Shown here piece by piece: positions 25,264 to 31,071 of a stretch of DNA of 64,000 bases. The notes beneath the pieces are model-generated. The model was not told the origin of the DNA, made no database searches, and was given only the letters and a program-made list of their open reading frames with translations. Made by a program: the position numbers and the translations under genes. Source of the stretch: Escherichia coli (lineage in GTDB: Bacteria > Pseudomonadota > Gammaproteobacteria > Enterobacterales > Enterobacteriaceae). Position 1 is the stretch's first letter. The number at the start of each line of letters is the position of its first letter. The DNA is taken from assembly GCF_024298765.1 (NCBI RefSeq), contig NZ_CP101210.1; one strand, written 5' to 3'.

Positions 25264-26160
25264 TCAGTAACAGCAATAGCGAATAAAATAAAAAAATACC
25301 GGAGCGGTGAAAATTAATGAGTCAATCCTGTCAAGGAGTCCGCCATGTCCTGGTAATAGTTTTCCACTATCTTTAACACCAACATCTCGTTTGATGGCTG
25401 ACATCACTACATCGCCGCAAAAACCACTAATACCAATTAACAAACCCGCTAATAATGCCTGTAATGTATCTAGCGGTGTCAGTAACGGTCCAATAATCAG
25501 TGACACAATCATGGTAGTGATTACGCCCCCCACCAGACCTTCCAGCGTTTTTCCCGGGCTGACTTTGGGGACCACTTTTCTTCTGCCGCAGGATTTCCCC
25601 CATAAATACTGTGCAATATCGTTTGACTCGGTTAATGCCAAAAGAAATAACACCAGTAACGCCTCGCCCTGGATATTTGTGGTTGGCAACATTAATAACC
25701 AGGCGGTATGACTCAAGGCGAAAACGGTCATTATCCAGCCACAAAAAATGGCGCTCACGGTATGCAGAAAACCGGAGGGTTCACCCACAAAAACTCGCCA
25801 GGTGGCTAATATCAGAAACCCAAACAAAGGTATAAATAACAGAAACAGCTCAAAGCAATTTAAACCGATAAGCAAATAGTTAAGAGGAATAACCCAATAT
25901 AACCAACGCGGAAAATGTACGGATATAAGCGTACAATATTCTTTCAATGCCAGAAAACTTATCAGCGCAAAAAACGTCAACGTCACCCAGCGTGGACCTG
26001 AAATCACCAGTGAAAAACAAATGACGATGCCCCACCAGGTACGAATACGTAATGTAACTTCATCCCCTTTTCTCTCCGGTAACCGCCATACCAGAAAACG
26101 GTTTATCAGCATTGCTAAAATTAACAACGCGAAAAGTGTTGCCAGAGATTTTTCCAGCAT
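25264..26160 (-). CDS. ynbB: Phosphatidate cytidylyltransferase-like membrane protein YnbB
   Basis: 298-aa polytopic ORF, synteny. Confidence 0.85.
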   Translation of the reverse strand: MLEKSLATLFALLILAMLINRFLVWRLPERKGDEVTLRIRTWWGIVICFSLVISGPRWVTLTFFALISFLALKEYCTLISVHFPRWLYWVIPLNYLLIGLNCFELFLLFIPLFGFLILATWRVFVGEPSGFLHTVSAIFCGWIMTVFALSHTAWLLMLPTTNIQGEALLVLFLLALTESNDIAQYLWGKSCGRRKVVPKVSPGKTLEGLVGGVITTMIVSLIIGPLLTPLDTLQALLAGLLIGISGFCGDVVMSAIKRDVGVKDSGKLLPGHGGLLDRIDSLIFTAPVFFYFIRYCCY

Positions 26161-26765
26161 TATTTTTCAGCGTTCATCAGGAGCACACTCCGACAACGAT
26201 TAATCGCAGTCCAGAGAAGCAGAATTGAAGCAATGCTCCATAAAAGATTATTCCATTGCATCCACTGTGGATAAATGGCAACGGCCAGCACCCACAACCC
26301 AAATATTAACGCGCGATCGCTTTTGCCAAATGGACCGGCATAACTGCGAATACCGTTAATCGTCTGCGCGAGTAAACCGCAAAACTCAGTCAATATGGTG
26401 CAAAATAACATGAGTATTACGAGTGATGCGTTACTTTCCGGTAAAAATAAAAACGGTAAATAAAGCGCAATATCGGAAATAACATCGCCAGTTTCATTCA
26501 AAATCGCCCCATGACGTGTTTGCTGATTGCACTCACGCGCCATCATGCCATCCAGCGCATTGAGTGCCATACGGACAAAAAGCACGATGGGCAATAGCAG
26601 AAACATGCCATGATATGGCACCAACGCCAACAACAAACCGGTGAGAAGAGAAAGTGCCAACGCGGCAAGGGTGATCTGATTTGCAGACACTTGCCGCTTA
26701 TGAAGCCAAAACATCGTCGGCCTTAACAGTGACTGAAAGAGCGGTTTTATCTGGTAGAGCGTCAT
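26160..26765 (-). CDS. ynbA: CDP-alcohol phosphatidyltransferase-family membrane protein YnbA
   Basis: ORF 26160..26771 (201-203 aa), synteny; stop overlaps ynbB start. Confidence 0.85.
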   Translation of the reverse strand: MTLYQIKPLFQSLLRPTMFWLHKRQVSANQITLAALALSLLTGLLLALVPYHGMFLLLPIVLFVRMALNALDGMMARECNQQTRHGAILNETGDVISDIALYLPFLFLPESNASLVILMLFCTILTEFCGLLAQTINGIRSYAGPFGKSDRALIFGLWVLAVAIYPQWMQWNNLLWSIASILLLWTAINRCRSVLLMNAEK

Positions 26766-26933
26766 TATCAATCCTTGATAATTCTGTTTGCGCTATGGTG
26801 CATCAATTGCCCTGGCAGAGATATCGCAACACGCCGCTTCATTAAAAATTCAGAATATATCAAGGTATTGGGGCTCACTGTCAGGAATGATTATCCCCAA
26901 TTAATCAAATAGTTAAAAATATTACGCTGTTAT

Positions 26934-28274
26934 TCAATGCAACTCATCAAGTTTTCTCATCGCTTGTTCCCGTATTGCGCGCGTCTTACCGTTAAGCGCC
27001 AGCTGGCGGACTAAATCCAGTTCAGGGTTAACAAGCTCTAACGCCAGCAAAGGATCACGTTTCAGCCTCGCCTTTAATACATCAACTGGAAAACGGGGAT
27101 TATTCATCGCCACAATCCACCACTCGGGATCAATTTCTGCCGCCAGTACTGCAGGCGGTGTGTGGCGGTTGTTAAGTGCGCCGAACTTGAAAAATGTGAG
27201 ATTGCTTTTCGCCAGTGTACTCCACCATATACGATCCGGTTGTTTTGCCAGTACATCCAGTTGTGCTAACGCATCGGGTTCTAGTGCATAATAAACACGT
27301 AACGCTTCGTTAACCTGCGCACGGGAACTGTTTTCCTGCCTCAGAAAAAACTTCGCCCAAATATCATTTCGTGGCGTGTTTTGCTGTAATTCCTTTAAGC
27401 CTTGGGAGAGTTCGCATTATGGCAAGATCAAATGTCGCAATGTCTCGTCCTTCAAATGCAGCAACGTTGCCTTCATCCAGCATTTGCAATTCCTGCAATA
27501 ATTCAGGAGAAGACTTAGGGCGAAACAGCGCTTCTTTTTTCATCTGATTACAGACATTCCCTGCTATGCGAATATTGCTTCGCTTAAAAATTTCTTTCAG
27601 AGCATCTTCATCATTTATTAGGCCCCAATAATATGCATCAGGATTTATTATCATCAGCGCTTTTTTGACATTTTCAGTGTCATTTTTGTCACTCGCACGG
27701 ACCATGAATTCACTATTTGTCGAAGATGCAACAACAGGTGCAATTATGTCATTGATAAATATCCCGCGCGCATTAATACTTCCCTTAATCGTAGACGGAT
27801 TATCGTAATATGAGTCGATAAATACCAGTCCACTTGCATTTATCGAACCGGTAATTAACAGTGGTGAATCCGTAACTATATTCGTTGCCGTTACGTTACG
27901 TTACGTTACGTTACGTTACGTTACGTTACGTTACCGAGAATAACCCATGGATTAGAAAGAGAGAAAGTGGAAATATTACCTTTGACTGTCAAATTGCCAA
28001 GAACAATCAATTTTTGATTACTCTCTATATTACCTTCTACCATTAAATCGCCACGATGCACTTTCCAGTCCGATGCAGATAAACCGACGGGGACAAGATT
28101 CACGCTACTGTTGATAGCTTGTTCAACTTGTTGTTTATCTTCAGCGGTAGCCGCAGAAAAAAATGGTTCAATATCAACTGCATTTACAACACATCGAAGT
28201 TCCGCCTGTACTGGAAGACTCAGCATAAACAGGGGAAGTAAACCTATCCAGCTGCAAATCCTGGGCTTAAACAT
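26934..28274 (-). pseudogene. ydbD: Decayed ydbD-like gene for a secreted protein: N-terminal signal-peptide segment, stop inside a pentanucleotide repeat, further frameshift near 27364-27420
   Basis: Three collinear minus-strand coding segments in different frames (28274-27921, 27900-27364, 27417-26934), hand-translated; sits where ydbD lies between ydbC and ynbA. Confidence 0.5.
27889..27933. repeat. Perfect pentanucleotide microsatellite (CGTTA)9; TAACG on the coding strand
   Basis: Read directly: cg + ttacg x8 + ttac; the minus-strand reading frame terminates at TAA inside the array. Confidence 0.95.
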
Positions 28275-28334
28275 ATGCACTCCATGCCATTAAAAAAGAA
28301 TAAATATCCTCCGGCATAGCCGGAGGTTTTTCAA

Positions 28335-29046
28335 ATGCGCCTATAAGGCTCTCTTACCAGCCGCGCCCTAACAGGCGCACACGATCTGACATTTGCATCC
28401 AACTTCGTTACTTACGGCCCGTAAACGGGCTGCCCGGATAGGGAATCGATAACTGCTCTCCCATTTTATCCTCTTCAAGCTGGTGCTTTATGTAATCCTG
28501 TATCTTCGCCGTGTTCTTACCCACCGTATCGACGTAGTACCCTCTGCACCAGAACTCTCTGTTCCTGTATTTGAATTTCAAATCACCAAACTGCTCGTAA
28601 AGCATCAGACTGCTTTTCCCTTTCAGATATCCCATAAAGCCGGATACACTCATTTTGGGCGGGATCTCCACAAGCATATGGATATGATCTGCACAGCATT
28701 CAGCTTCAAGAATCCGTACGCTTTTCCACTCACACAGCTTTCTCAAAATACTGCCTATTGCTCTACGCTTCTCTCTGTAGAACACTTGTCTTCGGTATTT
28801 TGGCGCAAAAACTATGTGATATTTACAGTTCCATCGGGTGTGCGCTAAGCTCTTTTCGTTCCCCATTGGGACCCCCTTTTGATTTCTTGTTTGACACTTG
28901 CAGTTGCCAGACCGCAAGGTGTTTTAACAAATCAAAAGGGGTTTTAATAACTGGCTCAAAGCTGAAAGCTTTCCGGAACCCCCAGCCTAGCTGGGGGTTT
29001 TCTGTGCACAAACAAAAGGGAAATGCATCTTTCCCTTTTGTATATT
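28335..29046 (-). mobile_element. IS200-type insertion sequence (IS200/IS605 family), ends approximate
   Basis: Y1 transposase gene plus upstream hairpins (aacccccagcctagctgggggtt; aaaagggaaatgcatctttccctttt); no terminal inverted repeats expected; ends estimated from ~707-bp size. Confidence 0.8.
28408..28866 (-). CDS. tnpA: IS200 transposase TnpA (Y1 / HUH family)
   Basis: 152 aa from MGNEKSLAHTRWNCKYHIVFAPKYRRQVFY... with HxH motif (HIHMLVEIPP). Confidence 0.9.
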   Translation of the reverse strand: MGNEKSLAHTRWNCKYHIVFAPKYRRQVFYREKRRAIGSILRKLCEWKSVRILEAECCADHIHMLVEIPPKMSVSGFMGYLKGKSSLMLYEQFGDLKFKYRNREFWCRGYYVDTVGKNTAKIQDYIKHQLEEDKMGEQLSIPYPGSPFTGRK

Positions 29047-29048
29047 CG

Positions 29049-29909
29049 TTATTCTCGCGAAATACCGTCCAACGTAGACAACACTTCCTCAGAAAGATGC
29101 AATTTTTCAGCAGCCATATTCTCCCGTAAATGCGCAACAGAAGACGTCCCTGGGATCAGCAAAATATTCGGTGAACGCTGTAACAGCCACGCCAGCGCCA
29201 CCTGCATTGGTGTTGCGCCCAGGCTCGCTGCTACATCCGAAAGTGTGGAGGATTGCAGCGGCGTAAAGCCCCCAAGCGGAAAGAACGGCACGTAGGCAAT
29301 GCCGTCACGAGCCAAAGCATCAATCATTGCGTCATCAGCACGATGAGCAATGTTGTATTCGTTCTGCACACAGACGATTTCGGTAATCTTACGCGCCTCT
29401 GCAACCTGCGTCGGTGTAACGTTGCTCAGACCAATATGTTTTACCAGGCCTTGTTGTTGCATCTCTGCCAGTACGGTCAGGCTGGCTTCAATCGATCCTT
29501 CCGCTGGGCCATGACCATCCCCCATCATAACGCGCAGGTTAACCACATCCAGTGCGCCCAGCCCGAGATTACGTAGATTATCGTGCACCGCTTTTTGCAG
29601 CTCTGCCGGAGAAAATGCGGGCAACCAGGATGCGTCCTCTCCACGCCGCGCACCAATTTTAGTGACAATTGTCAGGTCGTCAGAGTAAGGATAAAGCGCT
29701 TCGCGGATAATCTGATTGGTGACGTGCGGACCATAAAAGTCGCTGGTATCAATATGATTGACGCCCAATGCCAGCGCCTCACGCAGCACGGTTATAGCGA
29801 CGTGGCGATCTCTTGGGGGGCCAAAAACCCCAGGACCTGCCAGTTGCATCGCGCCATAACCAAGACGGTTAACGGATTTTGTACCGAGAGTAAATGTATT
29901 GCTGCTCAT
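29049..29909 (-). CDS. ydbC: Aldo-keto reductase family NAD(P)H-dependent oxidoreductase YdbC
   Basis: ORF 29049..30062; start set at MSSNTFTLGTKSVNRLGYGAMQLAG (286 aa). Confidence 0.9.
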   Translation of the reverse strand: MSSNTFTLGTKSVNRLGYGAMQLAGPGVFGPPRDRHVAITVLREALALGVNHIDTSDFYGPHVTNQIIREALYPYSDDLTIVTKIGARRGEDASWLPAFSPAELQKAVHDNLRNLGLGALDVVNLRVMMGDGHGPAEGSIEASLTVLAEMQQQGLVKHIGLSNVTPTQVAEARKITEIVCVQNEYNIAHRADDAMIDALARDGIAYVPFFPLGGFTPLQSSTLSDVAASLGATPMQVALAWLLQRSPNILLIPGTSSVAHLRENMAAEKLHLSEEVLSTLDGISRE

Positions 29910-30063
29910 CGCACCCTGCCCTGTAATAAAACGGATTAAGAAAAATAGTATAGAAACGAAAAGAGATAAATAATGCGAAGGCGTAAACAAGATTACTGGA
30001 TGAGTTGCTCTATTGCCCTGAAAGACACCAAAACAAAACGCGTCAAGTACCGCATCCGGCAAT

Positions 30064-30094
30064 AAAAAAACCGCAACCTGTATCAGCGTTGCGG
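30064..30094 (-). terminator. Rho-independent terminator after paaY
   Basis: Hairpin accgcaacc...ggttgcggt followed on the minus strand by U7. Confidence 0.7.
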
Positions 30095-30139
30095 TTTAGG
30101 TATCACATGCTAAAAATTAGAACGTCCAGCATCAGGACG

Positions 30140-30730
30140 TTACTGTTTCGGTCGCAGATTCTCATCAAATACCAGGCGCTGCCTGCCAGGTTCAACTTCC
30201 CGCAATGGCTCAACTTGATGCAACGTCTGCTTACTGCGTGTCACCAGCACCTGATACTCATGCGTGCCCTGCTTTTTCCATGCCAGTTCCTGCTCACTAA
30301 GTTCACGAATCGCTTTTGCCGGGCTGCCGACAATCAGGTAATTAGCAGGCATTTCTGCTTTGGCTTTCACAAATGCGGAAGCGCCAACAATGCTGTTCTC
30401 GCCAATCACCGCACCGTCCATCACTACCGCGTTCATACCCACTAATGCATTGCGGCGGATAATGCAGCCGTGAAGGATAGCGCTATGACCAATATGCCCA
30501 TCTTCTTCCACGACAGTATCCTGATCGGGAAAACCGTGCATAACGCAATTATCCTGAATGTTCGCGCCATCTTTCACCACGATACGACCGAAATCGCCAC
30601 GCAGGCTGGTATTTGGCCCAACGTACACGCCCTTGCCGAGAATAACATCGCCGATCAATACCGCTGTCGGATGGACAAAACTCTCTTCTGGCACAAACGG
30701 AGTCAGACCGTCTATCTGATAAATTGGCAT
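30140..30730 (-). CDS. paaY: Phenylacetate-pathway hexapeptide-repeat protein PaaY
   Basis: 196-aa [32 protein letters not shown]... Confidence 0.9.
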
Positions 30731-30880
30731 AACGCCTCCTGTTCAATATTCAAGCCGCCAAAACGTTGAAAATACAGGCTTCCCGGCGCAGGCAATTCAC
30801 CGACCGAGGTTTCACCTTTTTCACTAACGAACGCTAAAGCAGCAGGCGCTACGCGCTGATAAAGTTTGCCGATAAAGGTT
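30712..30880 (-). pseudogene. paaX: Probable 3' remnant of paaX (C-terminal ~55 codons only)
   Basis: Minus-strand ORF ends 19 nt into paaY as in a paaX-paaY operon; upstream part of the ORF is antisense to the feaR remnant; boundary approximate. Confidence 0.45.
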
Positions 30881-31071
30881 TGGTAGTCGCGCAATATATC
30901 CGTAACCGTCGTCTCGATTTTTGTGCAGATGCGATTCGCCATGCCGCAGATGATGAAAAACTGGCAGGCATTGGCTTTCATTGGGGATTTTCCGACCAGA
31001 GTCATTTTTCAACGGTATTTAAGCAACGCTTTGGGATGACGCCAGGCGAGTATCGACGTAAATTCCGCTAA
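30880..31071 (+). pseudogene. feaR: 3' remnant of an AraC-family regulator, probably feaR (C-terminal HTH only)
   Basis: 63-aa ORF ending ...GFSDQSHFSTVFKQRFGMTPGEYRRKFR, a typical AraC C-terminal helix; convergent with ydbL as feaR is. Confidence 0.5.

Follow-up and report, generated by a model that had tools for sequence, protein, structure and literature searches.

The ydbD locus and its neighbours

In the window, i.e. the whole 64,000-nt stretch of Escherichia coli DNA analysed here, the minus strand carries, in this order, paaY, pdxI (ydbC), the tnpA gene of an IS200 element, a remnant of ydbD, ynbA, ynbB and ynbC (Table 1). The order pdxI-ydbD-ynbA-ynbB is that of K-12, the position of ydbD between pdxI (ydbC) and ynbA being conserved. 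The distance between pdxI and ynbA, inclusive of the IS200 element, was measured as about 2.28 kb, in agreement with the 2.3 kb reported for this interval in the first-pass annotation of the same DNA.

The remnant was assigned to ydbD by synteny and by the 96-97% nucleotide identity of all its retained parts to K-12 ydbD, with start and stop as in K-12. Pairwise alignment to the K-12 derivative J53 (ydbD of 2307 nt, 768 aa) gave three collinear blocks, and tblastn placed K-12 YdbD aa 1-121 at 28274-27912 (89% identity), aa 115-286 at 27897-27382 (95%) and aa 615-768 at 27398-26937 (98%). Thousands of complete E. coli genomes have a ydbD that aligns with the interval at 96-98% identity. Most of these alignments stretch over about 2.5 kb of the genome while taking up only about 1.5 kb of window query, hence sequence is missing from the copy in the window. 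Judged on sequence identity and gene order, the interval is a true orthologue of K-12 ydbD.

The longest ORF across 26934-28280 is of 119 aa, and an intact frame of about 768 codons is absent there. In RefSeq, an identical allele is labelled by PGAP as a pseudogene ("frameshifted; internal stop"), as is the locus in other genomes with the deletion described below, and in strain APEC E12049 the PGAP pseudogene has exactly the extent and the repeat copy number seen in the window.

As regards the protein, the only Pfam family above threshold in K-12 YdbD was DUF2773 (PF10971, aa 688-768), which is retained in segment 3 of the remnant (E = 3e-46). A sub-threshold match to Bactofilin (PF04519; E = 0.0024, 18.5 bits against a cut-off of 27.9) covers aa 78-138, so that this region is the one cut by the repeat, at residue ~115. 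A scan of K-12 YdbD against NCBIfam returned no family, and a Pfam scan of segments 1 and 2 returned nothing at E < = 0.01. The N-terminus (MFKPRICSWIGLLPLFMLSLPVQA/ELR) looks, by eye, like a Sec signal peptide, and a secreted, beta-helix-like protein is plausible from the sequence. We considered YdbD as a protein that probably starts with a signal peptide, may contain a bactofilin-like beta-helix and ends in DUF2773; it has no established function. Among the titles and abstracts listed, no work on the function of E. coli ydbD or on this allele was apparent.

Table 1. Features of the ydbD locus, in coordinates of the window (position 1 is its first letter)
Feature	Position	Strand	Description
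paaY	30140-30730	minus	intact
pdxI (ydbC)	29049-29909	minus	
IS200C insertion	28301-29009	minus	709 bp; tnpA 28408-28866, 152 aa; boundaries by alignment to IS-free alleles
ydbD pseudogene, whole remnant	26934-28274	minus	1341 nt, against 2307 nt in K-12
Segment 1	27921-28274	minus	117 codons from the ATG, with a signal-peptide-like N-terminus and the first part of the putative beta-helix region; ended by a TAA from the third repeat unit
(GTAAC)9	27889-27934	minus	perfect pentanucleotide microsatellite; TRF: period 5, 9.2 copies, 100% matches
Segment 2	27364-27900	minus	equivalents of K-12 aa 115-286, 95% identity; stop at 27364-27366
Deletion junction	27388-27395	minus	single copy of the 8-bp microhomology AAGGAATT
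Segment 3	26934-27416	minus	equivalents of K-12 aa 615-768, 98% identity, including DUF2773; native stop at 26934-26936
ynbA	26160-26771	minus	

Lesions of the ydbD copy

Tandem Repeats Finder returned, for the interval, a single array, the (GTAAC)9 tract, which reads CGTTA/GTTAC on the plus strand. In K-12 and O157:H7 the corresponding sequence is GGT AAC GTG ACG GCA, i.e. GTAAC-GTGAC-G, two imperfect copies in which the dimer encodes Gly-Asn-Val-Thr. In the window GTAAC is present nine times and is followed by G-GCA, a gain of 35 nt relative to K-12 and O157. The N-terminal frame reads GGT AAC GTA ACG TAA, and its ORF stops in the third unit, at 27921-27923 (...GNVT-TAA). Stops fall three times per frame within the tract (27923/27908/27893; 27928/27913/27898; 27933/27918/27903). 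In fact, since 5 and 3 have no common factor, every frame meets a TAA once per 15 nt, and with a TAA in all frames any tract of at least three copies, long or short, stops translation at residue 117. Either slippage or a G-to-A change may have turned the ancestral dimer GTAAC-GTGAC perfect, and the perfect dimer would then have expanded, presumably by slipped-strand mispairing.

On the plus strand, an antisense ORF of 53 aa (27885-28046; MPLRYVTLRYVT...; MPLRYVTLRYVTLRYVTENN...) crosses the repeat. As GTTAC is free of stops in all frames of that strand, each added copy would lengthen this ORF; we found no evidence for a gene and we regarded it as a by-product of the repeat.

The second lesion is a deletion. 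The 8-bp sequence AAGGAATT occurs at CDS positions 845 and 1846 in both K-12 and O157 ydbD, and the single copy in the window has on its left the context of position 845 and on its right that of position 1846. The missing sequence is exactly the interval from repeat to repeat, 1001 nt in length, corresponding to K-12 residues ~287-614 (about 328 codons). Such a junction would be left by a deletion between the two copies, either microhomology-mediated and RecA-independent or by replication slippage. For both lesions, the mutational mechanisms are those that we infer from a comparison of the window with K-12 and O157.

These two changes determine the reading frames. Segment 1, whose translation (MFKPRICSWIGLLPLFMLSLPVQAELR...WVILGNVT*) is 89% identical to K-12 aa 1-121, and segment 3 share one frame (codon-start coordinate mod 3 = 2); segment 2 alone differs (mod 3 = 0), being put out of register by the 35 nt that the repeat gained, and it runs across the deletion junction. 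Relative to K-12 ydbD, the gain of 35 nt and the loss of 1001 nt add up to -966 nt. This sum is divisible by 3, with which the common frame of segments 1 and 3 agrees. Between 27364 and 27420 the middle frame crosses the junction into out-of-frame C-terminal sequence, and the C-terminal frame opens there.

The first-pass annotation had proposed a decayed ydbD-like gene, truncated by the repeat, much shorter than the 768-aa K-12 protein and split into three collinear minus-strand open stretches. All of this holds: the stretches are present at 28274-27921, 27900-27364 and 27416-26934; segment 1 ends inside the repeat, which supplies a TAA in whatever frame it is read; the remnant has 1341 nt against 2307 nt in K-12; and the decay is attested by the orthology to K-12 ydbD, the TAA in the repeat, the 1001-nt deletion and the PGAP pseudogene call. 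Two details had to be corrected. The stretches had been assigned to three different frames, and only two are used. Moreover, a frameshift had been placed near 27364-27420, where there is no small indel and where, at 27388-27395, the junction of the 1001-nt deletion lies. An internal deletion, which had been mentioned as a possibility, proved to be the main lesion, and the proposed stepwise pseudogenisation by repeat expansion, loss of frame and internal deletion is supported by the lesions found in comparison with K-12 and O157.

A further lesion, in addition to those proposed earlier, is the insertion of IS200C. The element is about 0.7 kb in length and has a single Y1 transposase (of the ~150 aa class) and a terminal hairpin, as is proper to the IS200/IS605 family; its end sequence has more than 13,000 matches in E. 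coli genomes. It is placed directly behind the pdxI terminator hairpin; on its other side comes the ribosome-binding site of ydbD, whose ATG is 27 bp downstream of the element. The end facing ydbD contains a terminator-like hairpin at 28308-28326 (by consensus match only).

The deletion allele in other genomes and the variation of its repeat

The distribution of the allele was analysed with a 141-nt probe across the deletion junction, searched in 5426 complete E. coli genomes. We considered as carriers of the deletion allele the 75 genomes that covered the probe in full, each with at least 99% identity (100% in all 60 carriers among the matches listed). About 3850 other genomes matched the probe as two separated halves, and about 1500 of the 5426 (~28%) gave no match. 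Many carriers are chicken, turkey or other avian isolates, O78:H4 APEC strains are among them, and human, pig, dog and water isolates are represented too. One carrier, APEC O2-211, belongs to ST117 (PMC6256689). The 1001-nt deletion together with the expanded repeat, with or without IS200, marks a lineage that includes ST117 APEC.

IS200 is present at the ydbD site in 63 genomes and absent in 12 of the 75 deletion carriers. Two of these 12 alleles were read directly, those of 2014C-3338 (4 copies of the repeat) and MDR_56 (6 copies). Since some deletion carriers lack it, the insertion is younger than the deletion. The repeat expansion and the deletion would both have come before IS200; all 75 genomes carry both, and either order of the two would fit. 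IS200C would then have inserted in a sub-lineage, cutting the remnant off from upstream transcription and bringing a terminator-like hairpin immediately ahead of it.

The surroundings of the locus are eroded as well. At about 30731-31071, beside paaY, a paaX fragment without its N-terminus abuts a feaR fragment (C-terminal HTH, plus strand, 30880-31071), and both are annotated by PGAP as partial pseudogenes in APEC E12049. The DNA between feaR and paaX, which on the K-12 map we take to be the feaB-tynA-paa cluster, has apparently been deleted in the lineage of the deletion allele. The gap between paaY and pdxI is only ~230 bp (29910-30139) and contains no autotransporter gene (ydbA); in K-12 and O157:H7, ydbA is found just upstream of pdxI, as a pseudogene in K-12. 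In NZ_CP041304.1 (strain MSHS 133), which belongs to the deletion-allele lineage, the downstream gene ynbB is also truncated, with ISVsa5 (IS4-like) adjoining. An independent inactivation of ydbD was found in NZ_AP027759.1 (strain 2017-02-1CC), where the N-terminus is missing and the gene adjoins an IS5 that abuts a truncated feaB; given this separate loss, ydbD and its neighbourhood decay repeatedly in E. coli. The decay of the gene in itself matters little, as ydbD has no established function, gives no match to the probe in about 28% of complete genomes and is truncated by other routes elsewhere.

For the copy number of the repeat, we used the alignment spans for about 60-62 genomes and the direct reading of 13 loci, and all spot-checks agreed. 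Spans of the matches listed were preferred to coverage and identity because, with a 146-nt query and with a synthetic 3-copy query, BLAST pieces overlap within the repeat and inflate both values. Among the 75 deletion-allele genomes, 15 lengths of the GTAAC tract occur, the shortest of 4 and the longest of 21 copies (20-105 nt), and all of them differ by multiples of 5 nt. Precisely, the number of genomes per copy number was 4:1, 5:1, 6:6, 7:9, 8:7, 9:16, 10:15, 11:6, 12:5, 13:1, 14:2, 15:1, 18:2, 19:1 and 21:2.

Fifteen public alleles were taken in full, with flanks of 340 nt ahead of the tract and 1900 nt behind it. Thirteen of them had flanks with 0 differences from the window, and the remaining two differed at no more than 2 positions; the same 15 alleles plus the window had 8 different tract lengths, and all the length differences were exact multiples of 5 nt. 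As for the full-length alleles, 57 out of 57 had the 2-copy span of 111 nt (57 of ~3800, sampled evenly down the ranking; 26 rows with consistent spans); a sample of this size could miss a rare full-length allele with an expanded tract. The tract has, thus, what defines a VNTR or microsatellite, i.e. perfect head-to-tail repeats, a polymorphic number of them, and flanks that differ at 0-2 of 2240 bp.

One could ask whether the length differences are artefacts of sequencing or assembly. Long-read assemblies can miscount repeats, and many of the records are recent, chromosome-level and of uncertain polishing. However, errors of this kind are hard to reconcile with differences in exact 5-nt multiples between perfect flanks, and with a tract of 20-105 nt, which is well inside single reads of any platform. 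In addition, apparent duplicate assemblies of one strain agree (E166, 9 and 9 copies; 2020N21-246, 7 and 7), as do OZ547164 and OZ546951, both of 4,946,734 bp, and the 57 sampled 2-copy alleles show no such variation. We hence consider an artefact very improbable.

A non-functional ydbD remnant with a probably drifting repeat

We considered the interval as a non-functional remnant of ydbD that bears three independent lesions, an expanded repeat, an internal deletion and a later IS200C insertion, and in which the length of the tract drifts without acting as an on/off switch; we assign to this reading a probability of roughly 0.93. The remnant is presumably not expressed, although the cell could yet produce the 117-aa N-terminal peptide, whose Shine-Dalgarno sequence and start codon are preserved.

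The alternative that fares best, though still a decidedly improbable one, starts from that peptide: the 117-aa product (signal peptide plus ~95 residues) would be a retained small secreted protein and the locus a remodelled gene. None of the 15 alleles taken in full has lost the start codon, the Shine-Dalgarno sequence (GGAG) or the 117-codon ORF, and 0 differences were seen over 340 nt, but the flanks that are certainly dead show zero differences too, so that this conservation is uninformative on selection. Furthermore, IS200 and its terminator-like hairpin stand immediately upstream in 63 of the 75 genomes, and the fragment ends amid the weak bactofilin-like match (aa 78-138), hence with an incomplete beta-helix.

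Slightly less probable still is that (GTAAC)n is the switch of a contingency locus, in which a YdbD-derived protein, secreted or on the surface, would be switched between on and off by slippage. The repeat does lie inside the coding region, just past the signal-peptide-like N-terminus, and its copy number is highly variable among near-identical genomes, both of which are traits of a phase-variable gene; a copy number that restores the ORF (an ON state), however, is missing. With a TAA in every frame, no tract of at least 3 copies can be read through, and the downstream 1001-nt deletion shifts the frame again. All the sampled full-length, presumably functional alleles have 2 imperfect copies and no expanded tract. 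The copy numbers themselves (n = 0, 1 and 2 mod 3 in 32, 27 and 16 genomes, respectively) show no clear preference, which is weak evidence as the genomes are non-independent. We discarded the phase switch on the basis of three of these points, i.e. no readable length from 3 copies upwards, a second break downstream and the lack of the tract in the intact alleles sampled. The literature found on phase variation by pentanucleotide repeats concerned other species only, with no E. coli case in it. The locus is in this respect a textbook warning against taking every variable repeat within a coding region for a phase switch, the unit here encoding a stop in each frame.

Finally, the first-pass annotation had named what would overturn its proposal: that the segments come from some other gene, shorter and intact, or that the locus is not orthologous to K-12 ydbD. 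Nothing was found in favour of this reading, and it is practically discounted by the identity to K-12 ydbD over all the retained parts, by the equal neighbours on both sides, by tblastn and alignment, which place all the segments in ydbD, by the longest ORF and by the PGAP call.

The pseudogene status is already in RefSeq, and the expansion of simple sequence repeats, microhomology deletion and IS200 insertion are all well known. The hypervariable (GTAAC)n, on the other hand, may be an undescribed VNTR: we found no literature linking ydbD to a tandem repeat, and no E. coli case among the papers on pentanucleotide phase variation. Work on the combination of ST117, pseudogene and phylogroup G was not found either. 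Considering the non-functional remnant as the correct reading, the tract would be a neutral, lineage-specific, hypermutable microsatellite, the neutrality of its length being suggested by its setting in a dead gene; once the gene was dead, the tract would have been released from selection, and its length would keep drifting. On balance we lean, by a small margin, towards a stronger claim, i.e. that (GTAAC)n arose de novo in the dead gene of one lineage (ST117 and related avian, pig and human isolates) and mutates at such a pace that it tells apart isolates whose flanks agree over kilobases. If true, it would be a free typing and clock marker, of very high resolution, for a poultry-associated pathogen, and would show, in a natural setting, to what length a short-unit repeat can grow in E. 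coli after selection on the host gene ends. In any case, the repeat varies much more than the DNA around it and could serve as a marker for typing or for mutation rate.

Four comparisons with known systems summarise the locus. K-12 ydbD (b1407; WP_000910026.1, 'DUF2773 domain-containing bactofilin', 768 aa) shares with the window copy its position, start, stop and C-terminal DUF2773; in contrast, the window copy lacks codons ~287-614, has 7 extra GTAAC units with an in-frame TAA and an IS200 27 bp upstream, and cannot encode the 768-aa protein. The junction resembles those of microhomology-mediated (RecA-independent) deletions between short direct repeats in that one copy of the 8-bp repeat is left; for ydbD we infer this mechanism from the structure of the junction.

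Contingency loci based on simple sequence repeats include the CTCTT repeats of Neisseria opa and the tetranucleotide repeats in the lic and mod genes of Haemophilus. Like them, ydbD has a perfect short-unit repeat in the 5′ coding region, with rapid gain and loss of whole units; unlike them, it has no ON state, given the stop in each frame and the downstream deletion, and the tract appears to have arisen only in a dead allele.

VNTR loci are used for MLVA typing of E. coli, e.g. the O157 loci with units of 6-7 bp. As in these, the short-unit repeat of ydbD differs in number between close isolates while its flanks are essentially invariant (15 alleles checked); unlike in the O157 loci, its unit is of 5 bp and it is confined to one lineage, that of the ydbD-deletion allele, which includes ST117.
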